IMG/VR virus record: IMGVR_UViG_3300044655_001017 | Direction: 5' to 3' (one strand) | Length of the DNA: 64,000 nucleotides | From: a virus | Taxonomy: Duplodnaviria > Caudoviricetes | Part shown: positions 8,096 through 58,600 of the stretch, one piece after another | Numbering within the stretch: position 1 is the first letter of the stretch | How the letters are laid out: every line of letters begins with the position of its first letter | Made by a program: the position numbers and the translations under genes | The notes under the pieces: generated by a model | Databases searched by the model: none | What the model was told of the DNA's origin: nothing | Seen by the model: only the letters and a program-made list of their open reading frames with translations

Positions 8096-8629
8096 TTATC
8101 CTGTATATCTACAATGGCTTTTGCGAGTTTCCCACAGCTCAACTGCAGTAACCTTTGCTACATCACCTATACGTGATTGAGCATATTCAAACAAATACTT
8201 ACAAATGTTTTCACTAGTTGGTACAAAATCTACTAGTACAAAACTGTTATAATGTAATTGTTCACCTTCAGTTAATCCAACCCAGTTGTAACTTCCTAAG
8301 TTAGTAAAGTTTGCAAATGGGTGTTTGGCTTTGCTCCATTCGTTACCTGTAATTAACTTAAAGTTTGGATCATTGATATCAATCATAAACTTATGATCTA
8401 GCACATCATCTACAAATTGTTTCATAAAGTTTAAATTCTTAAAGTCTGTAACCATTTCTGAATGATCTAACGTATCAGAACCTAAAAATACTTTAATTGA
8501 ATAGCTGTGTCCGTGTAAATGCTTGCAGGCACAGTCAGTTGAAATACTTAACTCAACATGATTTAATTTTTGTGCCCATACTCTGTGTCCCATTTCAAAA
8601 TGAAACTCTTTATCTATTTCCCATTTCAT
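8096..8629 (-). CDS. queD: 6-carboxy-5,6,7,8-tetrahydropterin synthase (QueD)
   Basis: KEFHFEMGHR, CKHLHGHSY (CxxxHGH), MVTDF, LDHKF, PTSENI, ELWET. Confidence 0.9.
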   Translation of the reverse strand: MKWEIDKEFHFEMGHRVWAQKLNHVELSISTDCACKHLHGHSYSIKVFLGSDTLDHSEMVTDFKNLNFMKQFVDDVLDHKFMIDINDPNFKLITGNEWSKAKHPFANFTNLGSYNWVGLTEGEQLHYNSFVLVDFVPTSENICKYLFEYAQSRIGDVAKVTAVELWETRKSHCRYTG

Positions 8630-22640: not shown

Positions 22641-22674
22641 ATAACTTTATTAACAACTACACAAGGAACTTATT

Positions 22675-25564: not shown

Positions 25565-25565
25565 G

Positions 25566-25573: not shown

Positions 25574-25595
25574 TACTAATAACACGGGATTAACT

Positions 25596-25970
25596 ATGCG
25601 TATTAAAGATCTACTTGAAAATGCTCACTTTAAAAGTGAAGAGTTTATTAAACAATCTGAGGACGGTAATGAGATTGATTTTGATTTAACCGAAGATTTA
25701 GTTTTCTTTTTAAACAACGACGACGATGCGTATCGCCGGCACCTTTTACCTGCAGTGTATAACTTTATTGATAAACAAAAAGCAGGTAACAACCCTAAAT
25801 ATACTATTTTTAAAACTGCAGTAGCAGATGGTTATAAACGGTATACTAAAGAATACCCTATGCGAGAGCTACCAACTGAAATAGATACTAAAATTTGGAA
25901 GTTATCTTGTAAGAAAATCTTTAATGACGTATCTAAAGATATGAAAGACGGTACTTACGACCACACTTAA
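25596..25970 (+). CDS. Hypothetical protein, possible capsid-internal protein
   Basis: MRIKDLLE N-terminus. Confidence 0.7.
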   Translation: MRIKDLLENAHFKSEEFIKQSEDGNEIDFDLTEDLVFFLNNDDDAYRRHLLPAVYNFIDKQKAGNNPKYTIFKTAVADGYKRYTKEYPMRELPTEIDTKIWKLSCKKIFNDVSKDMKDGTYDHT

Positions 25971-33035: not shown

Positions 33036-33209
33036 ATGGAAGAATTTAATACCTGTACGGAATGCATCCGTCCGGAAGTATGTACAGTAAGATGTGAATG
33101 CAGTATCATTGTTCATGGATCAGAAGAAGTTGCAAAACAACGCGACGAAGCGATGTTTATGGAATGGATTAATGATCATGCAACTAATCGCGATAGAGGT
33201 GCAGAATGA
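33036..33209 (+). CDS. Small Cys-rich protein
   Basis: MEEFNTCTECIRPEVCTVRCECS; ATG at 33036 preferred over the GTG inside the hairpin; ATGA overlap with the polymerase start. Confidence 0.5.
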   Translation: MEEFNTCTECIRPEVCTVRCECSIIVHGSEEVAKQRDEAMFMEWINDHATNRDRGAE

Positions 33210-35869
33210 GTTATGTAGATGCATGGTTTGATCGCGATAATGATGTTATTAAAATTGTAGAAAGAAATTCAAAAGGTGAACGGGAATACAAAGATATTGC
33301 CGTTAAACACACATTATATTATACAGACCCGAAAGGGAAATATCAATCAATTTACGGAGACCCCGTATCAAAAGTAATTTGTAACAATACAAAAGAGTTC
33401 CGCAAAGAACTTTCAATACACGGTAATAAAAAGCTGTTTGAAGCAGATATTAATCCAATTTTTAAATGCTTATCAGATAACTACCTTAATCATGACGCAC
33501 CTAAATTAAATATTGCGTTTTATGATATTGAGGTTGATTTCGATCCAGAACGCGGGTATGCATCACCCGATGATGCGTTTATGCCTATTACTGCTATTGC
33601 AGTGTATTTACAATGGTTAGATACTCTTATTTGTTTAGCAATACCTCCAAAGACATTAACTATGGATCAAGCTAAAGAACAAATTAGAGATATTCCAAAT
33701 ACTATTCTCTTTAACACAGAAGCAGAGATGTTAGACACATTTTTAACACTGCTTGAAGATGCTGATATTATTAGCGGATGGAATAGTGAAGGATTTGATA
33801 TACCATACACTGTAAATCGTGTTACAAAAGTTCTATCAAAAGATGATACACGCAGATTCTGCTTGTTTAATCAATTACCAAAAAGACGTGAATATGAAAA
33901 GTACGGCAAAGCTGCAGTAACATACGACTTTGTAGGACGTGTGCATTTAGATAGTTTACAATTATATCAAAAGTACACATATGAAGAAAGACATAGTTTT
34001 AGACTTGATGCTATTGCTGAATATGAGTTAGGTGATCGTAAAACACAGTACGAAGGTACGCTTGATCAGTTATACAACAATGACTTTAGAACGTTTATTG
34101 AGTACAACCGTCAAGATACTATGCTATTACACAGACTTGATACAAAATTAAAGTTTATTGACCTAGCTAATACACTTGCACACGAGAACACTGTATTACT
34201 ACAAACTACTATGGGTGCGGTTGCTGTAACAGAACAAGCAATTATTAACGAATCACATCACAGAGGGTTTGTTGTACCTAACAGAAAAGGTAAAGCAGAA
34301 CCAATTCAAGCTGCAGGTGCGTATGTTGCGTATCCTAAAGAAGGAATTCATGACTGGATTGGCTCGCTAGATATTAACTCTCTGTATCCAAGTGCCATTA
34401 GAGCATTAAATATGGGTCCGGAGACTATTGTAGGACAACTTAGACCAATCGTAACTGACGAATACATAGGCTTACAACTAGCTAAAGGTAAATCGTTTGC
34501 TTCTGCATGGGAAGGGTTGTTTGGTACACTTGAATATACGTCTGTTATGAATGAAGAAATAGGTACTGATATTACAATTGACTGGGAAAATGGCGATACT
34601 GATATATTAAGTGCTGCTGAAGTATACAGATTGATATTTGAAAGTAATCAGCCATGGGTTATGTCAGCTAATGGAACTATCTTTTCATATGAAACAGAAG
34701 GTATTATTCCTGGATTACTAAAGCGATGGTATGCAGAACGTAAGGATATGCAGAAAAAGCTAAAAGAAGCTATTAATGCAGGTAATAAGATTGAAGAAGA
34801 ATATTGGGATAAACGTCAGCTGGTTAAGAAGATTAACCTAAATAGTTTATATGGTGCTATTCTTAATCCTGGATGTAGGTTCTTTGATAAACGTATTGGG
34901 CAATCAACTACGTTAACTGGCAGACAAATTGCTAAACACATGGCAGCTAAAGTAAATGAGATTATAACCGGCGAATACAATCACACAGGTAAGTCTATTA
35001 TTTACGGTGACACTGACTCTTGTTACTTTTCAGCGTATCCTACACTTAAACGTGAAATAGATAATGGTAGTTTACCATGGTCTAAGGAAACTGTTGTTCA
35101 ATTATATGATCAAATTAGTGATCAAGTTAATAGTACATTCCAACAGTTCATGCTTGATGCATTTCATTGCCCTAAATCACGTGGTGAAGTAATTAAAGCT
35201 GGTCGTGAGATTGTTGGTAGTAAGAGCTTATTCATTACTAAAAAACGTTATGCAGTACTAGTATACGATAAGGAAGGTAAACGTAAGGATACACTTGGTA
35301 AAAACGGTGAAATTAAAGCTATGGGCTTAGATTTAAAGCGTAGTGATACACCTGAATTTATTCAAGACTTCTTATCACAAGTATTAGAAATGGTATTAGG
35401 TGGTGATACTGAACAGCATGTACTAGATTACATCAGTAAGTTTAGGATATCGTTTAAAGCTAGACCAGGTTGGGAAAAAGGTTCGCCTAAACGCGCTAAT
35501 AGCATTACGTCTTATTTAGAAAAAGAAGCTAAACAAGGCAAAGTTAATATGCCCGGACATGTTAGAGCAAGTTTAAACTGGAATACACTAAAACGTATGT
35601 ATGATGACAAGTATTCGATGTCTATTACAGACGGTGCAAAGGTAATTGTATGTAAACTTAAACAAAACCCATTAGGGTTTACAAGTGTTGCGTACCCAGT
35701 AGATGAATTACGCTTACCGCAATGGTTTAAAAACCTACCATTTGATCATAATGGAATGGAAGATACTATTATTGATAACAAACTTGATAACTTGATTGGC
35801 ATTTTGAACTGGAAATTAGCTGACACGTCAGATAGAAACACATTTAACAGTTTATTTGAATTTGAATGA
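33206..35869 (+). CDS. Family B DNA polymerase (T4 gp43-like)
   Basis: Exonuclease motifs YDIEV, GWNSEGFDIPY and YNRQD; polymerase motifs DINSLYPS, KINLNSLYG and YGDTDS. Confidence 0.97.
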   Translation: MSYVDAWFDRDNDVIKIVERNSKGEREYKDIAVKHTLYYTDPKGKYQSIYGDPVSKVICNNTKEFRKELSIHGNKKLFEADINPIFKCLSDNYLNHDAPKLNIAFYDIEVDFDPERGYASPDDAFMPITAIAVYLQWLDTLICLAIPPKTLTMDQAKEQIRDIPNTILFNTEAEMLDTFLTLLEDADIISGWNSEGFDIPYTVNRVTKVLSKDDTRRFCLFNQLPKRREYEKYGKAAVTYDFVGRVHLDSLQLYQKYTYEERHSFRLDAIAEYELGDRKTQYEGTLDQLYNNDFRTFIEYNRQDTMLLHRLDTKLKFIDLANTLAHENTVLLQTTMGAVAVTEQAIINESHHRGFVVPNRKGKAEPIQAAGAYVAYPKEGIHDWIGSLDINSLYPSAIRALNMGPETIVGQLRPIVTDEYIGLQLAKGKSFASAWEGLFGTLEYTSVMNEEIGTDITIDWENGDTDILSAAEVYRLIFESNQPWVMSANGTIFSYETEGIIPGLLKRWYAERKDMQKKLKEAINAGNKIEEEYWDKRQLVKKINLNSLYGAILNPGCRFFDKRIGQSTTLTGRQIAKHMAAKVNEIITGEYNHTGKSIIYGDTDSCYFSAYPTLKREIDNGSLPWSKETVVQLYDQISDQVNSTFQQFMLDAFHCPKSRGEVIKAGREIVGSKSLFITKKRYAVLVYDKEGKRKDTLGKNGEIKAMGLDLKRSDTPEFIQDFLSQVLEMVLGGDTEQHVLDYISKFRISFKARPGWEKGSPKRANSITSYLEKEAKQGKVNMPGHVRASLNWNTLKRMYDDKYSMSITDGAKVIVCKLKQNPLGFTSVAYPVDELRLPQWFKNLPFDHNGMEDTIIDNKLDNLIGILNWKLADTSDRNTFNSLFEFE

Positions 35870-36665: not shown

Positions 36666-37057
36666 TGATGGATATTAGAAAAGCATTAAAATTATTAGAT
36701 ATCATATATGTAAACGAAAACGATAGCATTAAATCGTCAGTTGATAAACTAACAATGTTAGCGCAATTAGATATGCCATCTTATTCTATGCCAGGACCGT
36801 TTGAACAGTTTTATGTTGATTACGAATACATGAAACAACGTGTGCAAGGACTTGAATCGAGATTAACCACACTTGAAGATTATAATCGAAACCCATATAC
36901 AAATTACACTGTTAATTCGCATATAGTTGGACATGTTACTGCAAGTCCGCAGTTTGTAAGTGCATTTAACAGAATTACACAATTAGAAACTGAATTACAA
37001 GTTACTAAAACGTTACTTAGTAAGTTATTAACCCCAGAACAGGAAGAAGATGAATAG
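36665..37057 (+). CDS. Hypothetical coiled-coil protein
   Basis: Coupled to flanking genes. Confidence 0.65.
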   Translation: MMDIRKALKLLDIIYVNENDSIKSSVDKLTMLAQLDMPSYSMPGPFEQFYVDYEYMKQRVQGLESRLTTLEDYNRNPYTNYTVNSHIVGHVTASPQFVSAFNRITQLETELQVTKTLLSKLLTPEQEEDE

Positions 37058-38945
37058 AAACTTAACAGCAACACAACAGGATTATGCCGTGTTTTTGCCA
37101 GCAACGTCGGGTTTTTACTCGACGTTTGTTGGAAAACAACGTTACGGCAATTATGTTGAGCCGTCACGTATTCCAACATCATTTAAAGCAGGCGTAGAAG
37201 GTCTTAATTACTTAGAACCAGAAAAAGGTGAATTTTATTACAGATGGTGTTTGTATTCAGCAGGGCATGCAAACTTAGATTTAAATAAGTTTGACGAAAG
37301 TGAAGATATGTTCCGTAATAGAGATAGAAGTACTAGCTGGGTGTTAGGTGACTCCGGAGGCTTCCAAATAGGGAAAGGTGTATGGGAAGGCGAATGGAGA
37401 GATCCTAACAGTGCAATAGTACAAACAACTATGGCTGATTGCATTGCTAAAGGTATTGAAACTGTTCCTGTACTTGACTCAACAGGAAATCCAGTAGTTA
37501 ACAAAAAAGGTGTTCCTAAAACTACTAAAATTGATCACGTTAAACTATATCAAGCTCGGTTAGATGCTGCTCAAAAGAAAAGAGAGCAAGTATTAGCATG
37601 GATGGATACGTTAATGGATTACGGAATGGTACTTGATATTCCAGCATGGGTTGAACGAAGTCCTGCTGGTAAACTTGCAACTGGTATTACAAGTTATGAC
37701 GAAGCAGTTGATGCTACAATTTATAACAATGAATACTTTATGAAACACCGCAATGGTAACTGTAAATTCTTAAACGTATTACAAGGTGAAACCCATACAC
37801 AAGCTGACGATTGGTATAGTAAGATGAAAGACTTTTGTGATCCTGCTATATATCCAGATACACACTTTAACGGGTGGTCAATGGGTGGTCAAAATATGTG
37901 TGATGCCGAACTAGTACTTAAACGTGTAGTAACATTAAAATTTGACAACTTGTTACAAGAAGGCAAACATGATTGGATGCATTTCTTAGGAACCAGTAAA
38001 TTAGAATGGGCATGCTTTTTAACTGATGTACAACGTGCAGTGCGTAAATATGTTAATCCAAAATTTACTATTAGTTATGATTGTGCTAGTCCATTTTTAG
38101 CTACTGCTAATGGTCAGGTATATATTACTACAGAATTAGATGATAGATCTAAATGGGTGTATCGAATGGTTCCAAGCGTTGACGATAAAAAGTATGCACA
38201 AGATGCTAGACTATTTAAAGATGCAGTAATACAAGATGGTATTTTTAGTGTGTTTGATCCAAGTCCATTAATTGATCAAGTAGCAATTAAAGACGTGTGT
38301 ATATATGGTCACGGTGTTCCTAATTGGACAGAAGTCAATAACGATAATGTTGATCATGCTAACCTATTTACAGATCCAAAATATTTAAATGATCCTAAAT
38401 ACTGGATAACATTAGGCGATGCAAATAAAATTAACAAGATTGGTAAAACTAGTTGGGATAGTTTTAGCTATGCTATTTTAATGGGGCATAATGTGTGGAG
38501 TCACGTTAATGCTGTACAAAAAGCAAATGAAGCTTACGACAACGGTATAATTCCTCGAATGTTAATAGGCGAAAAAACTCAACCGTATGTTGTTAGAGAT
38601 ATTATTGACCGGATTATTGCGTGTGATGATAGAACCGTTGCTATTAAGATGATTGAAGATCTTGAAAAGATATGGATGGCTATTCCGGGCACTAGAGGTA
38701 ACACTGGCAAAAACATAGTTAACAACGAAACTACTACTACTACTAATTATGTAGCCGAATCAATTATTACAGAAAAAGTTGAAAAAATTAGAAAAGTGTT
38801 ATTAACAGATCTTACATCACAAGTTAACAACTTATTTGATTTTGATGACAATATTACAGAAGAAGTAGAATCCGATGACTATGAGTTTTCTGAAGAAGAC
38901 GAACTTACCTTATCTAACCTAGAAGATAGCATTAAACATGAATAG
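37050..38945 (+). CDS. TGT-fold guanine transglycosylase (DpdA-like)
   Basis: GDSGGFQ, VLDIP, VLQG, SMGG, HFLG, SYDCAS and GHN match the order of TGT active-site motifs; no CxCxxC zinc motif. Confidence 0.82.
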   Translation: MNRNLTATQQDYAVFLPATSGFYSTFVGKQRYGNYVEPSRIPTSFKAGVEGLNYLEPEKGEFYYRWCLYSAGHANLDLNKFDESEDMFRNRDRSTSWVLGDSGGFQIGKGVWEGEWRDPNSAIVQTTMADCIAKGIETVPVLDSTGNPVVNKKGVPKTTKIDHVKLYQARLDAAQKKREQVLAWMDTLMDYGMVLDIPAWVERSPAGKLATGITSYDEAVDATIYNNEYFMKHRNGNCKFLNVLQGETHTQADDWYSKMKDFCDPAIYPDTHFNGWSMGGQNMCDAELVLKRVVTLKFDNLLQEGKHDWMHFLGTSKLEWACFLTDVQRAVRKYVNPKFTISYDCASPFLATANGQVYITTELDDRSKWVYRMVPSVDDKKYAQDARLFKDAVIQDGIFSVFDPSPLIDQVAIKDVCIYGHGVPNWTEVNNDNVDHANLFTDPKYLNDPKYWITLGDANKINKIGKTSWDSFSYAILMGHNVWSHVNAVQKANEAYDNGIIPRMLIGEKTQPYVVRDIIDRIIACDDRTVAIKMIEDLEKIWMAIPGTRGNTGKNIVNNETTTTTNYVAESIITEKVEKIRKVLLTDLTSQVNNLFDFDDNITEEVESDDYEFSEEDELTLSNLEDSIKHE

Positions 38946-39462
38946 ACAGTATAATAACATAACTACTAACACTGCTAAATTTTTTGTTGGTAACGAGGTA
39001 GAACACACACCAGCATATGGTTTAAAAACATTGTTTGTTGTTGGTAATCAAACTATAGAAGCAGTACATTATCGGTTAGATGCTGAAGAAGATGTTACAC
39101 ACATCTTCTTTGGTGCAAACCATAGCTTTAATCCAAATACACCAGGTGCATGGATTGACTGGAATCACATAATTGAACACTTTTTAAAATTAGGCAAACA
39201 GTGTTCATTAGATATTCCATTTACAGTAGTAAACGATTTTAATAATAAAACTAACTTATGTTCATATTCAAATTTTATTCCACAAATTAGAATTCCGGTT
39301 GCAAATATTAAAGATTGGAGTTATAATACAATGATAAAATTAGATGACATAGATTTTAACGCAACTAATCCCGGGGTGTGGACACATAACTTAAAAGCAT
39401 TGCAAAATGATGATGTGTTTACTAGCTGGACTGACTATAACAACGACAATATAATTAAATGA
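38938..39462 (+). CDS. Hypothetical protein coupled to the TGT-like gene
   Basis: Overlaps both neighbours; GNEVEHTPAYG, HIFFGANHSF, TNPGVW. Confidence 0.7.
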   Translation: MNRQYNNITTNTAKFFVGNEVEHTPAYGLKTLFVVGNQTIEAVHYRLDAEEDVTHIFFGANHSFNPNTPGAWIDWNHIIEHFLKLGKQCSLDIPFTVVNDFNNKTNLCSYSNFIPQIRIPVANIKDWSYNTMIKLDDIDFNATNPGVWTHNLKALQNDDVFTSWTDYNNDNIIK

Positions 39463-39818
39463 CAGATACACAAATGATATGGGTTTCTTTTAAGAAAGAA
39501 GGAATTCACCATTACCCCGATGCATTAACTAACCCTAACTTAATAGATGTATCTTTTTTAGGACATCCACATAGACATATATTTCATTTTAAAGTATGGA
39601 TAGAAGTTACGCATTCTGACAGAGACATTGAGTTTATACAATTTAAACGATGGTTAGAATCATTGTATATTAGTTCAACATTATCATTAGATAACAAAAG
39701 TTGTGAAATGATAAGTAATGATTTATCATTAACAATTAGAAATGAATACCCTAATAGGGAAATTTGGATTGAAGTTTCTGAAGACGGCGAAAACGGATCA
39801 TTTATTAAGTATTTGTAA
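39459..39818 (+). CDS. T-fold QueD paralogue, DpdL-like (predicted CDG decarboxylase)
   Basis: FLGHPHRHIFHF (LxxxHRHxF in place of CxxxHGH), DRDIEF, SCEM, VSEDGENG. Confidence 0.7.
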   Translation: MTDTQMIWVSFKKEGIHHYPDALTNPNLIDVSFLGHPHRHIFHFKVWIEVTHSDRDIEFIQFKRWLESLYISSTLSLDNKSCEMISNDLSLTIRNEYPNREIWIEVSEDGENGSFIKYL

Positions 39819-39819
39819 T

Positions 39820-40032
39820 ATGAAACATTTTGTCTCAAAAGCTATGCTTGAACAACAGATTAATCGGTTACGCCAAGAGATATCAGACTTTGAAATCCAA
39901 CATATGAAATCAGTTAACCCTAAACTTAAAAACGTATTACACATTAAACAATTAAGAAATCAACTGTACGATTTGAAGGAACAACTGCTAATTCGTACTA
40001 ATCAAACTATATTAAAAAACGGAAGAAAATAA
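39820..40032 (+). CDS. Hypothetical coiled-coil protein
   Basis: Start MKHFVSK right after the upstream TAA. Confidence 0.55.
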   Translation: MKHFVSKAMLEQQINRLRQEISDFEIQHMKSVNPKLKNVLHIKQLRNQLYDLKEQLLIRTNQTILKNGRK

Positions 40033-40033
40033 A

Positions 40034-40288
40034 ATGGCTAAAAATTACAAAACATTCTCATACTTAGAATCACGTCCAGATGTTGTTAAAATCTTTGAAG
40101 ATTTAGAAGCATTCCATGACTTTTGCAGAATTGAGTTACGTAAATTTGATCCAGCAGATTTATATCGCAAAGATAGTAAATCGTACGGTTCGTACATAGC
40201 AAGTAAACGTCCACGTAAACCATATCAAGGTAATAAACCATGGCCAAACGGTGTTAGACCTAAAAACACATATCAAAAAAAATCTTAA
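40034..40288 (+). CDS. Hypothetical basic protein
   Basis: 84 aa, in operon. Confidence 0.7.
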   Translation: MAKNYKTFSYLESRPDVVKIFEDLEAFHDFCRIELRKFDPADLYRKDSKSYGSYIASKRPRKPYQGNKPWPNGVRPKNTYQKKS

Positions 40289-40301
40289 TCTTATTTTCAA
40301 C

Positions 40302-40323
40302 TGAAAGCCCTACGGGGCTTTCA
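40302..40323 (+). promoter_or_regulatory. Stable hairpin with UACG tetraloop (terminator or mRNA-stabilising)
   Basis: TGAAAGCCC-TACG-GGGCTTTCA just before the glycosyltransferase RBS; no U tract. Confidence 0.6.
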
Positions 40324-40337
40324 CCGCAGGACATATT

Positions 40338-41435
40338 ATGAAATTAAAACCTACTATTTGGATATTTGCTATTGAACCATTAGATACTCGGTATACTAAA
40401 CAATGGATCGAGCATATTCCATCACAACTTAAAGAACACGTTGGTGATTACAACATTGTACAAATTACTGGTGATCAACAAGACTCAGAAGTAACACCGG
40501 GTGCATTTTTAAACTTTATAGATACTAACATTTGGAAAGGATCACAGCTTGTTGGTTTTTTAAAAAACTATAAACGTACTACAACAGCTGACCATTTCTT
40601 ATTTACCGATGCATGGAATCCAGCAATTATAAACTTAAAGTACATTAAAGACTTAATGAGATTAAATTGGACATTTCACGGTTTGTGGCACGCTGGCAGT
40701 TACGACAAACACGATTTCTTAGGTTCAATTGATCACGGTTGGGTTAAACTAGCTGAAAAGAGTTATTATGCAGCATTTGATCATAATTACTTTGCAACTG
40801 AATTCCACGTGCGTATGTTTATGGAACAATTATTAAACAACGGAATGACTAGTGAAAATCCGTGGTTTGAAGAAGATTGGGATGAACGTTACGACGATGG
40901 TAAAATTGTACGCACTGGTTGGCCAATGGAATACTTAGCAGACGAACTAGCGCCGTATGCTAATAAAGAGAAACGTGATTTAATTGTATTTCCACATAGA
41001 GTTGCTAGCGAAAAACAAGTTGATATTTTTAAAGCATTAGCTCATCAATTACCACAATACGACTTTGTTGTATGTCAAGAACAAAAGCTAAGTAAAGATG
41101 AATATCACAACCTGTTAAGCGAAGCAAAGATCGTGTTTAGTGCTAACTTACAAGAAACATTAGGCATTAGTTGTTATGAAGGTGCGTTACTTGGTGCTAT
41201 TCCGATGGTTCCTGATAGATTAAGTTATAAAGAAATGTATATGTATCATTTTAAATATCCATCAGAATGGACTGCTAGTTATGCAGACTACGAATCACAC
41301 AGTTATGATTTGTGTAACAAAATTATCCATTACATAGAAAACTATAATGATATTGTACCATATGTTAAACAACAAGCCGATTACTTAGCACTGGAATTTT
41401 TTAATGCAGGAGATTTATATGACAAGTTTAAATGA
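40338..41435 (+). CDS. GT-B (GT4-like) glycosyltransferase
   Basis: PHRVASEKQ, ETLGISCYE (EX7E), GAIPMVPDRLSY. Confidence 0.8.
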   Translation: MKLKPTIWIFAIEPLDTRYTKQWIEHIPSQLKEHVGDYNIVQITGDQQDSEVTPGAFLNFIDTNIWKGSQLVGFLKNYKRTTTADHFLFTDAWNPAIINLKYIKDLMRLNWTFHGLWHAGSYDKHDFLGSIDHGWVKLAEKSYYAAFDHNYFATEFHVRMFMEQLLNNGMTSENPWFEEDWDERYDDGKIVRTGWPMEYLADELAPYANKEKRDLIVFPHRVASEKQVDIFKALAHQLPQYDFVVCQEQKLSKDEYHNLLSEAKIVFSANLQETLGISCYEGALLGAIPMVPDRLSYKEMYMYHFKYPSEWTASYADYESHSYDLCNKIIHYIENYNDIVPYVKQQADYLALEFFNAGDLYDKFK

Positions 41436-41835
41436 TACAATAACAACATCAGCTGGGTGTGATACTATTACATTTACGATGGATGGAGATCTACGTTACG
41501 GTATACCAGCTTTTGATACTATTACACTTAGTGACTATGTATCTAGTTCAACTGCTAGCGGAATATACAATGGAACAATGATGGGAACTGCTCCGTACAC
41601 AATTAGTAATTCTTCTACTATTGGAATTAATGGGGGTTCATCTTATTACACCGGCACTGGTGGTTATTGGAATCAATCATATAACGGTAAACCATTTGAA
41701 GATAACTTTCCAGAATGGAATGCATTTAGAGAGTTGTGTGATGAATATCCAGGATTAGAAAGAGCATATCAAAACTTAAAAACTTTTTATACTATGTGCC
41801 ATGCAGATAGTTTATTACCAAAGGACGATAAATGA
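41419..41835 (+). CDS. Hypothetical protein
   Basis: GGAG RBS; Thr/Ser/Gly-rich, then CDEYPGLERAYQNLKTFY. Confidence 0.65.
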   Translation: MTSLNDTITTSAGCDTITFTMDGDLRYGIPAFDTITLSDYVSSSTASGIYNGTMMGTAPYTISNSSTIGINGGSSYYTGTGGYWNQSYNGKPFEDNFPEWNAFRELCDEYPGLERAYQNLKTFYTMCHADSLLPKDDK

Positions 41836-42362
41836 AAGTAGTAAAATACAGTTGGAAACAATTAGAAGGTGCGGCATTGGAGATTGCACGTCAAATACAA
41901 AAAGATAACTGGAAACCAGATTACATTGTTGGAATTACACGCGGTGGACTTATTCCTGCAAACTTACTTAGTCAGTATCTTGGAGTTAAGATGTTAACAT
42001 TACACGTTAGTTTACGTGATCATCCGGATGATAACGAACACAATGCATGGATGGCATGTGATGCATTTGGAATTACTGATGACGAACTAGCAAGTACCGG
42101 ACAAGCTAAAAACATCTTAATTGTTGATGACATAAATGACTCAGGTGCAACCCTTGCTTGGATTAAAGAAGATTGGCAATCATTGTGTTTACCAGATAAC
42201 ATACGATGGAAAAACGATGTTTGGCATAAGAATGTTAGATTTGCTGTAGTGTTTGATAATGCTGCTAGTAATGCACATGTTGATTATTGTGCTGAAGAAT
42301 TTGATAAACGAGACGATCCAATTTGGATCGACTTTCCATGGGAAAACTACTGGAAGAAATAA
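41832..42362 (+). CDS. Type I phosphoribosyltransferase (Gpt-like purine PRTase)
   Basis: VGITRGG and LIVDDINDSGAT PRPP loop; WIDFPWE ending. Confidence 0.88.
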   Translation: MKVVKYSWKQLEGAALEIARQIQKDNWKPDYIVGITRGGLIPANLLSQYLGVKMLTLHVSLRDHPDDNEHNAWMACDAFGITDDELASTGQAKNILIVDDINDSGATLAWIKEDWQSLCLPDNIRWKNDVWHKNVRFAVVFDNAASNAHVDYCAEEFDKRDDPIWIDFPWENYWKK

Positions 42363-42694
42363 TGGAACTACACTCAATAGCTAAAAAACACGGTATACGA
42401 AGTATAGACGTTGAACAATATTATGCTACAGATGGTAATTATTCGTTAGATTGGTCAAGATCAAACCTGCCAAGCGAACGAGCAAACATTACAAGGTCGT
42501 TAACTGTTAAAATACACGAGAGAGATTTTATAACGTTAATTGACAACGCTGAAAAGTGTGAAGACTGGAATAAAAAATTTTATGAAGATATGTATGTTAG
42601 AGATTCTAATCCAACTGTTAAAGCAGCATACGAAAAATATCAAATGTTTTTAGAAATAGCAAGATCGGAGGTAAAAAATGACAGATTTAACTAA
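42362..42694 (+). CDS. Hypothetical protein
   Basis: Start MELHSIAK at the TAATG overlap. Confidence 0.65.
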   Translation: MELHSIAKKHGIRSIDVEQYYATDGNYSLDWSRSNLPSERANITRSLTVKIHERDFITLIDNAEKCEDWNKKFYEDMYVRDSNPTVKAAYEKYQMFLEIARSEVKNDRFN

Positions 42695-42839
42695 AGAAGA
42701 ATTACAAGAAAAAATTGCACAAGTAAAACGTGATATTGCTAAACATAGCGATTCAAACAATCAACGTATGCTGTTAGGTTTGTCACAATATTTAGAATAC
42801 TTAGAAGACGACTTAAAAACATTGACAAACAAGCAATAG
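42678..42839 (+). CDS. Small hypothetical protein (53 aa, below the track cut-off)
   Basis: GGAGGT RBS; MTDLTKEELQEKIAQVKRDI...KTLTNKQ then TAG. Confidence 0.7.
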   Translation: MTDLTKEELQEKIAQVKRDIAKHSDSNNQRMLLGLSQYLEYLEDDLKTLTNKQ

Positions 42840-42850
42840 TGTTGTATAAT
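42822..42850 (+). promoter_or_regulatory. sigma70-type promoter for the folE-queE operon
   Basis: TTGACA-N17-TATAAT. Confidence 0.8.
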
Positions 42851-42876
42851 ACACACTTACAAATAGGAAATTAAAT

Positions 42877-43548
42877 ATGAGCTTTAATAAAACAAAAACC
42901 GATCTAGAATTAGGTTTAGCAATACATAATCATTTAGTAAGTTTAGGTGTAGAAACTCCAGTAACTGAAAAAATCTTAACAGCATCGGAAAAGATTAATA
43001 TCATTCAGGACAAGTTTTATGATATTATGGTAACATTAGGATTAGACTTAACAGACGATAGTTTAGCAGATACACCTAAACGTGTTGCAAAGATGTTTGT
43101 CAACGAAATATTTTGGGGCCTCGATTACGACGCATTTCCAAAGTGTACTACTATTCAAAATAAGATGGGATACAATGAAATGTTAATTGAACGCAACATT
43201 AACGTACAAAGTAACTGCGAACATCACTTTGTAGTAATTGACGGGTTTGCAACAGTAGGTTACATTCCAAAAGATGTTGTACTTGGATTAAGCAAAATTA
43301 ATCGCGTAGTTGAATACTTTGCAAAACGTCCACAAGTACAAGAAAGATTAACAGAACAAGTATTCCATGCATTGGCATACATTTTAGATACTGATAATAT
43401 TGCAGTAGTTATTGATGCAAAACACTATTGTGTTGCTGCAAGAGGTGTAGAAGATACAGGTAGCACTACTATTACTAGTAAGTTAGGCGGTGCATTTAAA
43501 AACGATCCAACTACTCGTGCAGAATTTATGAGTATTGTAAACAAATAA
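42877..43548 (+). CDS. folE: GTP cyclohydrolase I
   Basis: TPKRVAK, CEHHF, GLSKINR, RPQVQERLT, HYCVAARGV. Confidence 0.95.
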   Translation: MSFNKTKTDLELGLAIHNHLVSLGVETPVTEKILTASEKINIIQDKFYDIMVTLGLDLTDDSLADTPKRVAKMFVNEIFWGLDYDAFPKCTTIQNKMGYNEMLIERNINVQSNCEHHFVVIDGFATVGYIPKDVVLGLSKINRVVEYFAKRPQVQERLTEQVFHALAYILDTDNIAVVIDAKHYCVAARGVEDTGSTTITSKLGGAFKNDPTTRAEFMSIVNK

Positions 43549-43556
43549 GGAGAGTT

Positions 43557-44000
43557 ATGAAAGACTTAAAACCACAAATTCCAGCAGTAGGCATTATGAA
43601 AACAAGTGACTGGGGTAACAGTAAAATTTATAAAATTCAATGCACATGCGGCAACGACGATGATAGTATTGAGTTTATGGTTGAGGCAGATGATCTTAAT
43701 ATGATTACTGTAACTACATTTACAACGCAAAAAACTGCGTACTGGGATAGACCATTTGATGTTTCAAACACATACAAAATTAAAAATTCGTTTTTAAGCA
43801 GTATTGCATACGAAACATTGAGCTTTCTTAACGGGTTTCAGCATCGTATTAAAATGACATGGAATTTGTGGTTTAATGGTTATCTTAAATATCAGCAATC
43901 AACTATAATGACTGAACAACAGACATTAAACTATGCAGAAACATTGAAAGCTGCTATTAAAGATTGCAAAGATTTTCGTAAACAAGATAGGAACAATTAA
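43557..44000 (+). CDS. Hypothetical protein
   Basis: AAGGAG RBS; CTCG motif. Confidence 0.7.
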   Translation: MKDLKPQIPAVGIMKTSDWGNSKIYKIQCTCGNDDDSIEFMVEADDLNMITVTTFTTQKTAYWDRPFDVSNTYKIKNSFLSSIAYETLSFLNGFQHRIKMTWNLWFNGYLKYQQSTIMTEQQTLNYAETLKAAIKDCKDFRKQDRNN

Positions 44001-44839
44001 TGTTATTAAAAGTATCGGAATTATTTTACTCATTACAAGGCGAAGGGCGATTTATGGGAGTACCGTCCATCTTCTTACGTACATACGGTTGCAACTTTAA
44101 ATGCCAAGGGTTTGGCATGCCTAAAGGTGAACATAGTGTACAAGCAGATGCTATTGCTAATAACGGTGTGCAATATCATTCGTATGATGAGTTACCGTTA
44201 GTAACTACTGGCTGTGACAGTTATGCAAGTTGGCATCCAACGTTTAAACATCTAAGTCCAACTATGTCAATAGACGAAGTTGCAGCTAAAATGATTGAGC
44301 TGTTACCTAACAATGAATGGGGTGGTGTACACTTAGTTATTACAGGTGGCGAACCATTACTACCCGGTTGGCAAAAGATATATCCAGAATTACTAAGACA
44401 CCCATTATTAGCAGACTTAAAAAACATTACATTTGAAACTAATGGTACACAAGAACTGTTACAAGATTTTGAAAACTACTTATACATGGAAAGACGGTAT
44501 CAAACTACGTTTTCAGTTAGTCCTAAGCTAAGTGTAAGTGGCGAGCCTAGAGAAAAAGCTATACGTCCTGAGATTGTAACAGAATATCAATTTTCAGGTC
44601 ATAGTTCATTCTTAAAATTTGTAGTAGCATCCGAAGACGATGTAACAGAAGCACTTGAAGTAATGCAGCTATATAAAGACAACGGATTTAGAGGTGATAT
44701 TTACTTAATGCCAGTAGGCGGTGTAACTGATGTATACAATCTTAATAATCGACGAGTAGCAGAACTTGCATTAAAGCACGGATTGAGATACAGTGATAGA
44801 CTTCACCTCCCTCTCTTCGGTAACAACTGGGGAACATAA
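44000..44839 (+). CDS. queE: 7-carboxy-7-deazaguanine synthase (radical SAM, QueE) with a split Cys motif
   Basis: ELFYSLQGEG, FLRTYGCNFKC, GCDS, ITGGEPLL, FETNG, SVSPKL, LKFVV, YLMPVGG, RLH. Confidence 0.88.
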   Translation: MLLKVSELFYSLQGEGRFMGVPSIFLRTYGCNFKCQGFGMPKGEHSVQADAIANNGVQYHSYDELPLVTTGCDSYASWHPTFKHLSPTMSIDEVAAKMIELLPNNEWGGVHLVITGGEPLLPGWQKIYPELLRHPLLADLKNITFETNGTQELLQDFENYLYMERRYQTTFSVSPKLSVSGEPREKAIRPEIVTEYQFSGHSSFLKFVVASEDDVTEALEVMQLYKDNGFRGDIYLMPVGGVTDVYNLNNRRVAELALKHGLRYSDRLHLPLFGNNWGT

Positions 44840-51857: not shown

Positions 51858-52621
51858 ACATTAAATTAGTATCATATTCTCAACCAACTGAAGAATTTGC
51901 TGAATTAGGAATTACCGATGCACAAGAACTTATAGCATTTTGCGCTCGTGTAAGTAATCCGTCAAATCAGTTTAATACAGAAACTTCAGAAAAACTTATC
52001 AACTACTTAATTAAGCATGCGCATTGGTCACCGCTTGAAATGGTTAATGTGTGTTTAGAAGTAAATACCACCCGCGATATTGCACGTCAATTACTACGTC
52101 ACGCTTCATTTAGATTCCAAGAGTTTAGTCAACGCTATGCAGATCCAACAAACGATCTGTCTTTTGAAATACGCGATGCTAGATTTCAAGATCCTAAAAA
52201 TCGTCAAAATTCAATTACAATTAATACTGCAGAAGAAGAGGCGATTAATGACGAATGGCATCTAAGACAAGAAGCTCATATTAATTCAGCAAAAGCACAA
52301 TATGAATGGGCAATTAGCAAAGGCATTGCTAAAGAGCAAGCTCGTGTCGTTCTTCCAGAAGGCAACACTAAAAGTCGTGTGTATGTTAACGGGACGTTGC
52401 GCTCATGGATTCATTACATACAAGTGCGCAGTAACGTGGATACACAGCTTGAACACAAACAAGTTGCAGTAGCGTGTGCGCAAGCAATTAGCGCAGTATT
52501 TCCAATGGTAAATGACTTTGTTTATAAGGAAGAACCAGTTTTAGAACCTATTAAAGAAGAAATTGTTGAACCTAAAAAACTTAAATGGCATCAACACTTT
52601 TTTAATTTTTACAAACACTAA
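51854..52621 (+). CDS. thyX: Flavin-dependent thymidylate synthase
   Basis: ARVSN, HWSPLE, TRDIARQLLRH, QEFSQRY, EQARVVLP, LRSWIHY, TQLEH. Confidence 0.9.
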   Translation: MNIKLVSYSQPTEEFAELGITDAQELIAFCARVSNPSNQFNTETSEKLINYLIKHAHWSPLEMVNVCLEVNTTRDIARQLLRHASFRFQEFSQRYADPTNDLSFEIRDARFQDPKNRQNSITINTAEEEAINDEWHLRQEAHINSAKAQYEWAISKGIAKEQARVVLPEGNTKSRVYVNGTLRSWIHYIQVRSNVDTQLEHKQVAVACAQAISAVFPMVNDFVYKEEPVLEPIKEEIVEPKKLKWHQHFFNFYKH

Positions 52622-52661: not shown

Positions 52662-55600
52662 TTACAAGTTAAAATCCTTACTATACGTCTTACCTACTAC
52701 TAAAGGAGCATCTTTAAAATATACGTTCACAAACGCTTTTCCTCGAAATGCATTGTCTGGAATTGATAGTGTAGATGTAGAACTCGACTCTCCAACTGTA
52801 GAAAACGAATAATCGTTTGGATCAACTAATTCATACGTTGCCTCATATACTTTTTTGTGTATATTATTAGTAGCACTTGTAATATTATCAGTAACAGATA
52901 TAGTAGACCAGTCATTGTTTACAACGTTTGATATCCCTCCGGTTAACTCACGCGACGGTATTGCAGGTAATGATGGTAGTAATACTGGTCCTGTAATGGG
53001 ACCAGTATTACCTCCTCCTTGCACTGGTCCAATAATAACAATTCCAGCATTTGGGTCTGCTAACCCAATTGCTGTTGTTTTTGTTGCAGTTTTACCATCT
53101 ACAAACGTAATTGTTAATATTGCTGATCCAATTATACCATATGGTATAGTGCCAGTTCCTGTTCCTGTCTGTATAGGTAAGGTTATCTGTGGAGAAACAC
53201 CTACAGTAACACCAGTACCGCCAGTACTATATGTGTAAACTGCAGTTTTTGATATAATTTCTAACTGACTTGTTGTTGTATCAGATACTACAAACACAGT
53301 ATTAGAACCGTTTTTAGTATTTGAGGTAGTAGTAAAGCTTCCAGTAATTACACGTAATGCTTCGTCAACTGCAGTTCTACCACTTGTAGATTCAGTCGCA
53401 TAACCTGTAGCATTTCTTGCAATAACTGTTACTGTATAATTTACATACTGTTGCAAATTATTATATGCGCGTATAAAGAGTCCGTTATTTTCAGAAATTA
53501 TTGTCGGATAGTTTGGATTTACATCTATATTTGTTTCATAACTAGCTACTGCACCACCTGAGGTCGGAGCCCTCCATTGGATTGCTAAACTCGAAGGTGA
53601 TATTGCACTAATTAACAAACTAGTAGGTTTTCCGGGAGATGCAGGTGGTTGCTGTATTAACTCCTGTATTCCAAACGATCTCGTAATTGGTAACGTTCTA
53701 TCATCTCGAAAATGCAACGTTAATGTTGCAGATCCAATAACACCTGCTGGCATTACAAATGAAGTTATTGGTGTGTTTCCCGCTAGTGTATCATATTTTT
53801 GAACGTTATATTGAGGAGCTGCCTCACCACCAACATACCCAGTAACATATGATGCTAAGAATGATCTGCCATCAATATTAGCTGATACAATATTGTCAGA
53901 TATAGAAATAGTAACAAAATTAGTAGTACCTTGTCGCGTACTAGTTATATTAAATTCACCTGTGTAATCTTGCGGTAGTAAGGTAAACGCAGTAGTAGCA
54001 GTTGTCTGTGCAGAATTTGATCCTGACACATTAATTGCAGTTACTGTAATTGTATATAATGTATGTTGAGTTAACCCCGATAATGTAGTTGTGTACAAAT
54101 CTCCAGATGCATCTGTTGTTGTATAGATTGTGTCAGTACCATTAATTGGAGTACTTGTCGCATATTGTGCAGAAACTGTATATCGGTCAGCTGACCCACC
54201 TATTGGGCTAGTAGTCTTACGCCAGTGAACTAACATTGACGTGTTTTGTATTCGACTTACACTTACTGCCGACGGTGCGCCTGCTACCGATTGCACTGCA
54301 GGTAAATTAGATTTTTCTGTCGAAACTGTTAATTTTTGTCCATCTGCATATGTTAATGTTAAAAATCCTTGGCAGTCAGTCGAAAATGCAATATCAATTG
54401 GGTTTGGTGCCGACTGAGCTGCTGTCTTAGTTGCTTTAGTACCGTATACATAATAATAAGTACGTTGTGCGCTAATATCATCACTAGTAATGTTAGCTGT
54501 TATTGATGCAATTACTTTAGTACGATTTGTGTCGTAAGCTAAATTTAAAGTTAATGTACCTGAATATTCATGCACTGTACCAGGTGAAATTGTACGACCA
54601 GTCCACGGAGTCCACGATCCTATATTATCGCCATACTGTGATTCAACATACTCAAAAGTAATTGATACCATACCATCGTCTGGGTTTGACCCTGCAAATC
54701 TAAATCCAGTCGGGACATACGATGTTCCGCCTTTGCCGCCAGTTGCACCATCTTTAGATGTATTACCAAGAGTTCCGGCGGCGCCACCTGGGGCGCCGCC
54801 ACCACCGCCACCGGCGCCACCTTTACCGCTTCCATCAGAGCCTGTTACACCGTTAGAAATTGCAGAATAAGATGATGATTGGTTAGTAGCAGAGGCATTA
54901 CCACCTGCACCACCGCTTTCTGTTGAATAACTTCCTCCGCCGCCGCCACCTGCACCTACACATACCGGGGTTCCTACAAAAGAAGTCCCAATAAATATTG
55001 CAGATGCGCCGCCGCCTGCACCGCCGCCGCCTGATTCAGATGCACCACTCTTCCCTCCAGAGCCGCCTATTCCTAATACGTTGTTAACAGCAATACCCGG
55101 TGCATACCGAACACTTTCTGCCGGAGTTCCTAGTTGCCCGACTACTACGGATAAAGAAGTAGCTGATGTTAATGCAGTCGATGTACCACTTATTGAATCA
55201 CCAGGAGTTGGATTTCTACTATATCCCATACTTCCGGCAGCTCCTGAAACAACAACTGATTTAACTTTCACACCGTCTCGAAATACGATAACACCCGATA
55301 CTCCGTAATGTTTAGTAACCGTTTTTATTACATCTGTAATAGTTAGTGTAGCAGTTCTAGTATTCCCATCTTCAAATTTTGCAGTAAACGTACCAACACC
55401 TGCACCGGGGTTACTATCTTTATACTCTATTGTTAACTTACCAGTACTATCTAAATTTGCTTTATGCCACGAACTGTTGCTTGTAAAAGTACCTGTACCA
55501 ACTATTGATATTAACACTTGTGAGCCAGCTTTACCACCTGTTATCATTACGTTTGAAGTTCCATTAGATCCGCGTGACGCAGGATCAATTACTATCGATT

Positions 55601-58600
55601 GATTATATATTGTTGCAACTTCTAATGTAATATCTGCACTACTAACAAACAATGATGCATTTGTATAAGGATTGTTAGTAGTAAATTTTATAGTAAATGC
55701 CAAATAACCAGTTAATCCGACAACTGGACTTGCTTGTAAATTTGCAAAAACTTGATAGGTATTTGATGATAAAAATGTAGTATCTTTAGTTGTTAACACA
55801 CCAGTTGTTTCGTTAGCACCTAGTGACCGGCGTATTAATGGATTAGTTGTTTCTACAGTAATTGTTATTGGTAATATTCTATCAACTGGATCAAATTGAG
55901 CTACTACTTTATACACAGTAGTATCAGTAACTTTTAATGTAAACGGCTGTTCTTTGATAGATGCAATAATTTGTGGTTTTGGAGGTTCATTAACTGTTAA
56001 TATAGCAGAACACGATGGTGTTTTGCTATTAAAACTTGCAGTAAATGTTTTAATTCCACCAGTTTTCCATGTACTAATGTTTGCTGTGTAATTTCCATTT
56101 ACATCTAATTTAAATCCTTGTCCAACTGCATAGTCCACACCCATATCTTTCACAGGAGCACCAGTTGAAAGTATAGACCCCTGATCTTCAGGTTTACCGC
56201 CGCTAATACTCAATGTAGACACTTCGTTATAATTAACAGTTGGCTTAACAATTTTCATAGTTGGGGCATATACAATTGCAATTGGAGGTGCATTAGGAAC
56301 TATAAATTCTAATATTTTAGAAGTTATAGTACACGTTGGTTCTGTTACACTTGTAAATTGAACTTGAAACTGTTCGGAATTTTTAATCTCTTGACGATAT
56401 GCTGATGTATATGTAATTTCAAGCGTTGAGGTGCTACTAGTAGTTACAATTTTAGAATTAGTCGAACCTTGATTTAATGCTCCAAAAATAAATGTGTGTG
56501 ATGCATTAACAATAGAACACTTAAATTGTTCACCAGTAAACGCAGGAGACACTGCAGCTGTAATTCTTAAAGTTCCAGTTTCCTTGTTAACAACTGCTGA
56601 TGCTGACGCTGGCATAGTAATACCTGCGATACTTCCAACACCGTTACCATTAAAATAACCTGTAATATCAACAGTATGTTTTAGTTTTTTTGAAGTATCC
56701 TCAAGTTTTACTTTTGGACTTGACCCTTGATTTGTTAACACTTTTCCAGGTTCGGTAGCGTCTACTGATATATAAAATTCAGTTACTGTATCGTCTAACT
56801 GATTTGCAACTGCAGTAAAATCAAACCAAGTATTATTAGATGGATCTTTAGTTTTACTTCCACTATTAGTTTGTAACCCTAATCGTTTATAATCAACACC
56901 AATTAAAGTCCAGCTTATTAAAGTACCGGCAGGAACTGACGTTGGCGTTGTAACTGTAAATCGAACTGTGTTCTTTGTTGGTGTTTCATCAATTGTCAGA
57001 AAATTAGCAGTAATTACATACGAATCCGGAGCAACTAATGTAAATGTAGGTTTAAGACCAGTAGACCCAAACCGTAAATTAGTACTTTGAGGGAGACTAT
57101 AATTAAGAGTATGTGGCTGATTTAATAGTTGGTTACCTGTTACTGTCCGGACATCGCTAATCTTACCTGTTGCCGGCGCTTGAGAAAGTGCTGTAGGATC
57201 CGGAACACTAACTATGCGTTCTACTGTAAAAGGAGCCGGAGTTGGTGTATATGCATCTGGATCAGCAAAAATTTCAATTGTTGTAAATGGATAATAATAG
57301 GGTACAAATACTTTATACACTAAATCTGGAGCATTTTTTCCTGCTGGACTATGTATTAAAGTATTACCAGTATCAAGATAAATATCTATGTTTTTAAGGT
57401 AATACAGCTCTACATATGTATACGTATTGGAATGGTTTATCTCGTATGTTAAGAGAGCTCCGCCAATTCTTAATTCAAGAAGAACTGCAAACCCTATCCA
57501 TATGGCAGATAAACTAGGTGTTGCAACACTAAAATCAAGTTTGGCTTGGTTAGCAGGTAGAGTTATTGAACCAGTTAACACCAATTGCGGCGGCAGCACT
57601 GGAGTGCCTGTACCAGCTATATTTTTCCAAGGCACAATCACCCAGTCAATTACCCGATCCGATGCAGTAGGTCCATCGGTAGTAAGAGTAAACTCCATTG
57701 GATCACCTAGTATAACCTTACTATACTTAGCTGTTAAGTACCAGTATTTATAATTTGGTGTAGTTGGACCACCTGGGGTAGTTGTAACTGGACCACCTGG
57801 GGTAGGTGTAACTGGACCACCTGGAGTAGTTGTAACTGGTGCATCTTTAATTGTTACTGTCCCGCTAGATACATAACTAGATTGCGCAAGGTTGTATAAT
57901 CTAACAGTAAAAGGTCTGCTACCTTTTGCTGGGTTAGGATTAACAGTAGTTAACGTAAGTGTTCCGGCATATCCGGTAATTAAATTTACATTTAGTGTCA
58001 TGCTACCTTCACCAAAATCGCTAGCGGTAATTGCGCCAGGGACTGTTGAGACAATCTCGCATAACAACTGTGTATTAATATCAAGCTTTGGTGACGTAAC
58101 TTCAAATACTATAACATTACCTGCCGTAACCTCGCGGGCTGTTTCTTTAATTTTATACGGTGTATCCTCAGTAATAGTAATAGTTGGGCTACCGCCTGTT
58201 AATATAATTAATACATTACTTTGATATATTTCAACTTGGAACTGTTCCGACCCTTCTGGAGCGATGAGTGAACCAACTGTTGTTGATATAGAAAGATTGT
58301 AAGAACTTGCTTCTTTAGTTACTATAAACGACCCAGTTAAACTAGCCGGTGAAAAATCAGAGCCGTCTAACGTGCTACCATTAGCACCTACTCCAATAAG
58401 TCTATAAGAGTATGTTATGTCTTGTAGTAACTTTGGAGTTGAGAATACAAATGTTGCTGTATTACCCTCCATTACTGAATTATTTGGAGTAGTTGAAGTT
58501 AATGTATATACTGCAAGTTCTGTAATTTTTACAATTGGACTCGGTAAACCTAACGTAACCGGTGTTTGACTACCTTGAGGTCTTAATTCAATACGGAATG

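Follow-up and report, generated by a model that had tools for sequence, protein, structure and literature searches.

The 64,000-nt stretch of viral DNA analysed here (IMG/VR record IMGVR_UViG_3300044655_001017, Caudoviricetes; this whole stretch is called the window below) carries at 37050-44839 a 7-deazaguanine gene cluster without queC. This observation, made in a preliminary description of the sequence, was confirmed. The source is an uncultured lake jumbo phage whose genes of the DpdL type should put 7-deazaguanine in the place of guanines in its DNA. We judge it likely that the cluster, together with a queD gene elsewhere in the window, is a DpdL-type DNA modification module which uses the 7-carboxy-7-deazaguanine (CDG) branch of the pathway independently of QueC. 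Phage DNA that carries 7-deazaguanines is shielded against restriction enzymes and CRISPR. The branch leading to 2'-deoxy-7-deazaguanine (dDG) is the least understood of them, and its key enzyme, DpdL, is only predicted.

The genes of the module and those lying between them are listed below with coordinates, strand and product length in amino acids (aa).

8096..8629, minus strand: QueD, 177 aa; PF01242, C-x3-HGH; 28 kb upstream of the cluster
37050..38945, plus strand: DpdA-like transglycosylase with a predicted tRNA-guanine transglycosylase (TGT) fold, 631 aa; predicted fold and profile-profile comparison
38938..39462, plus strand: conserved 174-aa protein (g174); overlaps both neighbouring genes at its ends
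39459..39818, plus strand: DpdL homologue (proposed CDG decarboxylase), 119 aa; motif and homology
40034..40288, plus strand: conserved 84-aa basic protein (g84); between dpdL and the glycosyltransferase gene, same position in 71 of 80 related contigs
40338..41435, plus strand: GT-B/GT4-like, probably retaining glycosyltransferase (GT), 365 aa; predicted fold, E-x7-E
41404..41835, plus strand: 143-aa protein (g143); variably present, in 21 of 80 related contigs
41832..42362, plus strand: type I purine phosphoribosyltransferase (PRTase), resembling xanthine-guanine phosphoribosyltransferase (XGPRT), 176 aa; PF00156
42877..43548, plus strand: FolE, GTP cyclohydrolase I; PF01227, NF006824
43557..44000, plus strand: 147-aa protein (g147); between folE and queE; present in 18 of the 80 related contigs and, in the relative G005, 76% identical
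44000..44839, plus strand: QueE, CDG synthase (radical SAM), 279 aa; phrog_2076, PF04055

The 119-aa protein is a homologue of named DpdLs

DpdL was described by Cui, Hutinet et al. (NAR 2023, PMC10516641) as a QueD paralogue in which L-x3-HRH-x-F replaces C-x3-HGH. It was proposed to decarboxylate CDG and was described in phages that have FolE, QueD, QueE and a DpdA but lack QueC. The candidate of that study, CGPG_00067 of phage phiST (HHpred 99.9%), was picked because phiST DNA contains 100% dDG and the phage encodes FolE, QueD and QueE without QueC; the dpdL of Acidovorax phage ACP17 was the second one cloned there (PMC10516641). The preliminary description had stated that LxxxHRHxF paralogues of QueD (DpdL) were predicted to decarboxylate CDG to 7-deazaguanine, which agrees with the published account (PMC10516641).

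It had also singled out a second T-fold-type protein with LGHPHRHIF in place of CxxxHGH. The motif was found as described: LGHPHRHIF in the 119-aa protein is an exact L-x3-HRH-x-F, and it aligns with the corresponding motif of the DpdLs of ACP17, Xanthomonas phage X1 and phiST as well as with the C-x3-HGH of the window QueD. L34, H38, H40 and F42 are invariant in 16 DpdLs, as are two glutamates. The protein is 56% identical to ACP17 gp125 (E 4e-47), 53% to gp166 of phage PA5oct (Wroclawvirus) and 31% to phiST gp040 (CGPG_00067; E 2e-14), and it matches phrog_17812 (E 3e-34). These comparisons argue for clear homology to the named DpdLs of ACP17 and phiST. Its presumed T-fold is taken from the literature (PMC10516641); the protein had no match to the Pfam 6-pyruvoyl tetrahydropterin synthase (PTPS) family, and an Atlas (language-model) feature search placed it near PF01242-bearing clusters with a score of 0.95. 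The context published for DpdL, with FolE, QueD, QueE and DpdA present and QueC absent, was found both in the window and in its closest complete relative, IMG/VR record G005 (372 kb, terminal repeats), in which the module is 57-92% identical.

CDG supply and the absence of QueC

That folE and queE are present was borne out by family models. FolE was recognised by NCBIfam NF006824 (E 3e-94; 314.5 bits against a cut-off of 202) and by PF01227 (E 4e-60). QueE matched phrog_2076, annotated as QueE-like radical SAM (E 1e-57), and PF04055 above its cut-off, the NCBIfam QueE models matching only below theirs. In an alignment of five phage QueE sequences C31, C35 and C72 are invariant, and the spacing in the window protein, C-x3-C-x36-C, places 36 residues before the third cysteine. 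A similar insertion is present in the QueE of PA5oct and X1, whereas ACP17 QueE has the usual C-x3-C-x2-C. The queD gene had been called distant, which is true of its position on the minus strand outside 37050-44839 but not of its sequence: QueD matched PF01242 (E 1.8e-28; 99.4 bits against a cut-off of 22.4), C-x3-HGH was seen in the alignment, and the G005 orthologue is 86% identical.

The statement that the window holds no queC, queF or queA survived two kinds of search. Pfam scans of the window open reading frames (ORFs), a giant open-ended ORF included, gave no QueC, QueF, QueA or canonical Tgt; one of these scans covered the best 25 of 50 families, matches beyond those being weaker than ~1e-6. 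Searching a six-frame translation of the window by phmmer with E. coli QueA, QueC, QueF and Tgt gave no match at E<=10. QueC was likewise not found in G005 by Pfam or phmmer, nor in the genomes of PA5oct, ACP17 and phiST, and neither QueC nor QueF lay within 10 kb in 41 more distant dpdL loci.

A transglycosylase fold with three catalytic aspartates

The 631-aa protein comprises a catalytic barrel (approximately residues 1-505) followed by an acidic low-complexity tail. It had no Pfam, NCBIfam or PHROG match and is not recognised by PF01702. An AlphaFold2 model was built from a 73-sequence alignment (pLDDT, the predicted local distance difference test score, 95.8). In Foldseek searches with this model all top matches were Z. 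mobilis TGT (E 2e-7, probability 1.00), and VIA-align superposed it on bacterial and mammalian TGTs with Z scores of 20-21 over ~310 residues (root-mean-square deviation 4.3-5.2). Profile-profile comparison with E. coli Tgt aligned the DSGGFQ segment, the base-binding aspartate (MVLD-IP against FDECTP), the QG loop and the nucleophilic aspartate (SYDC against MFDC). D101 and D344 are invariant in the family and D196 is present in 72 of the 73 members. Three aspartates are catalytic and invariant in bDpdA and in TGTs, those of bDpdA being D95, D130 and D256 (PMC10164549), and the aspartates of the 631-aa family fit the roles given for bDpdA, namely general acid/base, base recognition and nucleophile. 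Fold and aspartates thus sustain the earlier claim that the cluster encodes a TGT-fold enzyme.

The family profile was then compared by hhalign with DpdA2, DpdA3 and E. coli Tgt; the probabilities were 96.3% for ACP17 DpdA gp123, 95.6% for VH7D DpdA2, 89% for E. coli Tgt and 80.7% for phiST DpdA3. ACP17 gp123 itself is inferred to be of the DpdA2 type by its similarity to the nt-1 and VH7D proteins, and BLAST gave no link between it and the window transglycosylase. The model and the profiles point to a transglycosylase of the TGT/DpdA superfamily that is nearest to DpdA2 by profile only. Its family counts 870 clusters among 50%-identity representatives and >7,500 clusters in a 90%-identity collection, none with a Pfam domain, and from these sequences the transglycosylase appears to belong to a very large, unnamed clade without the DpdA zinc site.

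The gene lies just downstream of the DNA polymerase gene. In its acidic tail (38800-38945) we observed NLFDFDD, and the polymerase ends in SLFEFE (35840-35869); we take both to resemble the clamp-binding peptides of T4-like polymerases. The idea of a conserved clamp-binding peptide in the tail was weakened by a survey of the family, where no more than 25 of 172 members have a motif loosely of the LF(D/E)F type. A few members carry a clamp-like motif at the very C-terminus.

The locus recurs in related phages

All genes at 37050-44839 are on the plus strand, and upstream of them lie a family-B DNA polymerase gene (33206-35869) and then two small genes. The gene order polB / g245 / DpdA-like / g174 / DpdL / g84 / GT / (g143) / PRT / FolE / (g147) / QueE / g150 / exonuclease was also found in 80 IMG/VR contigs and, in part, in the 41 more distant dpdL loci. 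Because it recurs in this way, the arrangement is not due to chance. A search for near-identical DNA gave no match of the window among phage records, and exact-word scans of IMG/VR and of JGI metagenome contigs did not recover the contig from which it comes. The exact DpdL protein of the window is encoded on at least 22 contigs, among them six from six JGI metagenome samples, which suggests that the phage recurs in its environment.

The 631-, 174-, 119-, 84-, 143- and 147-aa products had no match in Pfam or NCBIfam. PHROG searches added no family match for the 84-aa protein, and PHROGs and Atlas features gave nothing usable for the 147-aa protein. In a close relative with an 86% identical transglycosylase (L004), homing-endonuclease-like genes (NUMOD3, DUF723) at 12753-13484 and 18569-19351 sit after dpdL and after queE, and the module's own genes are intact.

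A glycosyltransferase, a 174-aa protein and a phosphoribosyltransferase accompany dpdL

The 365-aa protein gave an AlphaFold2 model with a pLDDT of 88, the top fold matches of which were glycogen synthase, BshA, MshA and GlgM, a pterin glucosyltransferase ranking 21st. E273-x7-E281 is invariant in a 40-sequence alignment, and the match to Pfam Glycos_transf_1 is weak. The model points to a GT-B fold closest to the GT4 retaining glycosyltransferases. Identity is 43% to PA5oct gp167 and 36% to ACP17 gp124. In the phage database every record with a match covering at least 80% of the protein (17 of 17) also carries dpdL, always within 4 kb; these are Phosso, the PA5oct group, ACP17, BUDD, X1 and BCSR5, with the two genes directly adjoining in Phosso, PA5oct and ACP17. 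Among the 41 more distant dpdL loci the GT occurs with transglycosylases of the 631-aa type and of the DpdA2 type, never with DpdA3. A function on hydroxymethyl-pyrimidines was rejected, since GT-bearing G005, ACP17 and X1 are without a ThyA-family gene and the window has ThyX (encoded in its 26-64 kb part) and dCMP deaminase.

The 174-aa protein is encoded directly upstream of dpdL in 76 of the 80 related contigs and is a weak homologue of ACP17 gp122. Its relatives fill 2957 metagenome clusters, of which none has a Pfam domain; nothing usable came from PHROGs, from Atlas features or from a search of its profile against PDB sequences, nor from Pfam and NCBIfam. Both the GT and this protein adjoin dpdL across several unrelated phage lineages.

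The PRTase matched PF00156 (E 5e-17; 62 bits against a cut-off of 26.3), and all NCBIfam equivalogs stayed below their cut-offs. Among solved structures, its closest chains belong to archaeal purine PRTases and to E. coli XGPRT. Homologues occur in 11 phage records, six of them from phages with dpdL (BUCT-ZZ01 and the Cellulophaga phiST group among these), and the PA5oct homologue is gp163. In metagenomic loci the PRTase is found together with dpdL and each of the three DpdA types.

The main text of the study that named DpdL contains neither "glycosyltransferase" nor "phosphoribosyl" (PMC10516641), relative to which the GT, the 174-aa protein and the PRTase are new partners of dpdL. This locus and its relatives thereby name three candidates for the missing dDG steps. 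They can be tested in phages that can be grown, as PA5oct, ACP17 and X1 carry the GT-bearing dpdL module.

Signs of modified guanine in relatives

PA5oct DNA is resistant at restriction sites that contain G, in a pattern suggestive of modified G within GA and/or GG, and modification-dependent nucleases attack it (PMC12191111). In G005 (L095) we found runs of 154-295 nt without GA, GG, TC or CC at 51895-52091, 54111-54264 and 54448-54742. They have 20-25% G+C and comprise promoter-like, hairpin and coding sequence; normally ~16% of positions carry such a dinucleotide. The window itself contains no GA/GG/TC/CC-free run of at least 100 nt. The G005 runs would fit a motif-specific DNA modification. 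Taken with the PA5oct restriction pattern and the place of the gene among replication genes, they favour action of the transglycosylase on DNA at short motifs, and the enzyme probably does not act at every G.

Proposed pathway and alternative explanations

The above findings suggested the following DpdL-type pathway. FolE, QueD and QueE, assigned by homology, would convert GTP to CDG; the DpdL homologue, if the published proposal holds, would remove the carboxyl group to give 7-deazaguanine; and the TGT-fold enzyme, to judge from its fold and aspartates, would exchange this base for guanine in phage DNA. The most likely role of the PRTase is to return the expelled guanine to GMP and so to feed FolE again. 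The GT, perhaps with the 174-aa protein, may either be a missing helper of the pathway or add a sugar to the deazaguanine. As to the final base, plain dDG is our tentative choice, though less likely than not; a glycosylated or otherwise decorated deazaguanine follows closely, and the deoxynucleoside of CDG (dCDG) is improbable, some other base taking what is left. The expectation in the preliminary description of dDG, dCDG or a new derivative was reasonable, and its last option is strengthened, since both the GT and the PRTase are conserved alongside dpdL. We regard it as somewhat doubtful that the GT glycosylates 7-deazaguanine, in DNA or before insertion, in the DNA of PA5oct, ACP17 and the lake jumbo phage. 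If it did, the glycosylated deazapurine would be a purine hypermodification of a sort so far undescribed in genomes, and the 174-aa protein a further undescribed component.

Several points weigh against the DpdL-type pathway. CDG decarboxylation by DpdL is a proposal only, also for the type member, and when phiST or ACP17 dpdL was co-expressed with dpdA in E. coli no dDG was obtained, so that further unknown enzymes may be needed (PMC10516641). The DpdL profile gave no significant match to the window QueD by hhalign or to PDB sequences. HMMER tied the 631-aa family to no TGT, whether in the Pfam scan or with the family profile against PDB sequences, and the TGT relationship is therefore visible only by fold and profile-profile comparisons, in which the best structural matches are tRNA enzymes. 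Although a structural zinc site, CxCxxCx22H, is stated to be conserved in the DpdA family (PMC10164549), the 631-aa protein has no CxCxxC...H motif: its cysteines beyond residue 345 are single, and the family consensus retains one conserved cysteine only in that region. With the site absent, the protein cannot be placed in a named DpdA subfamily. The absence of QueC in this phage holds for the 64-kb window, and in G003, a relative at greater distance, a PP-loop gene resembling queC lies 130 kb away from dpdL. The 207-aa product of that gene (L086 1075-1695) matches only the C-terminal zinc region of QueC (30.8 bits). In X1 a PP-loop gene of the phosphoadenosine phosphosulfate (PAPS) reductase family (L091 5197-5730) lies within the cluster, between folE and the GT gene; either PP-loop protein could be an alternative CDG-activating enzyme. 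Finally, the base itself, dDG or a decorated derivative, is a prediction for this phage, and the presence of the PRTase also fits a route through the nucleotide pool.

In such a nucleotide-pool route the PRTase would join CDG or 7-deazaguanine to phosphoribosyl pyrophosphate, as TubE does, DpdL would decarboxylate the base or the nucleotide, and the polymerase would incorporate the reduced, phosphorylated deaza-nucleotide, leaving the TGT-fold enzyme a secondary or proofreading role. Its appeal lies in the company the PRTase keeps, since this gene occurs with dpdL in loci of each of the three DpdA types and also in phiST, a phage with dDG, where a MazG-like NTPase and a kinase-like ATPase cluster with dpdL as well. 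TubE is a CDG-specific PRTase after which decarboxylation follows on the nucleotide (PMC6112128), and the failure of dpdL and dpdA alone in a heterologous host (PMC10516641) would also be explained. Against this, nearly all loci retain, beside dpdL, a TGT-fold enzyme whose catalytic triad is intact, the window yielded no MazG homologue, and the PRTase resembles ordinary XGPRT, which fits guanine salvage. A sequence-specific modification, which the nucleotide-pool route cannot give, is moreover indicated by the blocks without GA or GG in G005 and by the motif-like way in which PA5oct DNA resists restriction; we consider this route unlikely. More improbable still is that the phage merely boosts CDG for a host whose QueC makes 7-cyano-7-deazaguanine (preQ0), with the transglycosylase inserting preQ0 as dPreQ0 and DpdL doing something else. 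QueC is present in most bacteria, preQ0 was the base inserted by every DpdA enzyme tested prior to the 2023 study (PMC10516641), and VH7D DpdA2, the nearest validated relative, takes preQ0, 7-aminomethyl-7-deazaguanine (preQ1) and CDG. However, dpdL never stood beside queC or queF in the loci examined, DpdL was described in QueC-lacking phages, and phiST, with the same QueC-less gene logic, has dDG and no dPreQ0 (PMC10516641).

Two further readings would dispense with DNA as the target. Tubercidin clusters combine CDG genes with a PRTase and no QueC (PMC6112128), and huimycin clusters combine a 7-deazapurine core with a PF13439 glycosyltransferase (bioRxiv 10.64898/2026.04.15.718813), so the cluster might make a free 7-deazapurine nucleotide or glycoside, similar to tubercidin or huimycin, for host takeover. 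We hold this to be very improbable, since a conserved TGT-fold base-exchange enzyme is encoded in the operon adjoining the DNA polymerase gene, PA5oct DNA itself is modified at G (PMC12191111), and no UbiD decarboxylase, GMP reductase or Nudix gene was found in the cluster with Pfam and NCBIfam. That the TGT-fold enzyme acts instead on host or phage tRNA, as its best structural matches do, is in our view barely credible. The PDB is rich in tRNA TGT entries (all 50 listed matches), which biases the ranking towards tRNA enzymes; by profile the family is more like phage DpdA2 than E. coli Tgt. No tRNA genes were found in the window, the gene stands among replication genes, and the DNA of PA5oct is modified.

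Comparison with known systems

These results support placing the system in the published DpdL-type, QueC-less branch (Cui et al. 2023) and not in a new kind. Phage phiST (PMC10516641) follows the same plan, with genes for CDG but none for QueC, L-x3-HRH-x-F in its DpdL, a TGT-like enzyme, and a purine PRTase gene in its genome. It differs in its distant DpdL (at the identity given above), its short 259-aa DpdA3, the two nucleotide-handling genes beside dpdL and the lack of both the GT and the 174-aa protein; dDG was measured in phiST, whereas the window phage is known from its genes alone. PA5oct gp162-gp168 and ACP17 gp119-gp126 are closer, with orthologous genes in the same order, PRTase and QueE included. 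The PA5oct DpdA-like protein is 34% identical to the window transglycosylase, whereas ACP17 has a DpdA2-type enzyme linked to it by profile comparison only. The records of PA5oct and ACP17 list both the GT and the homologue of ACP17 gp122 as hypothetical proteins.

Salmonella bDpdA (PDB 7UI4) and VH7D DpdA2 share with the window transglycosylase the TIM-barrel TGT fold, the aspartate in DSGG(F/L)Q, the base-binding aspartate and the nucleophile in (Y/F)D(S/C). The window protein departs from both in the zinc site and in its failure to be recognised by PF01702, has an insertion of ~60 residues after the DSGGFQ loop, and ends in another C-terminal subdomain followed by the acidic tail. Relative to the described DpdL cases, the departures appear to be this zinc-less unnamed clade of transglycosylases and the conserved GT, 174-aa protein and PRTase.

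The tubercidin enzymes TubE and TubF (PMC6112128) offer a parallel: their pathway runs through CDG without QueC, uses a PRTase of purine type and includes a decarboxylation. TubF, however, belongs to the UbiD enzymes and not to the T-fold proteins, and the pathway lacks a transglycosylase and ends in a free nucleoside; the phage PRTase is likened to TubE by role. A chemical precedent for the phage GT is HuiG, a glycosyltransferase modelled as adding a sugar to a 7-deazapurine intermediate (bioRxiv 10.64898/2026.04.15.718813); it acts on a free preQ0-derived base in actinomycetes and is likened to the phage enzyme by chemistry. Because the huimycin enzyme works on a 7-deazapurine scaffold, a sugar-bearing deazaguanine is a real possibility.

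Other features of the window

Adjoining queD, at 7066-8061 on the plus strand, is a gene for a UvdE-type UV-damage endonuclease (PF03851, E 3e-38). Pfam matches at 10609-25970 comprise a ClpB-like AAA+ protein, DnaJ-like and Cpn10-like chaperones, PhoH, a clamp-loader-like protein and the dCMP deaminase mentioned above. The segment 3303-6152 had appeared as an ORF-free gap of 2.8 kb in lists that omit open-ended frames. This reading was rejected, as the segment lies inside a giant minus-strand ORF (3-6152) that runs off the start of the window, encodes at least 2050 aa and has no Pfam match. A second giant minus-strand ORF, at 52662-62486, encodes 3274 aa.

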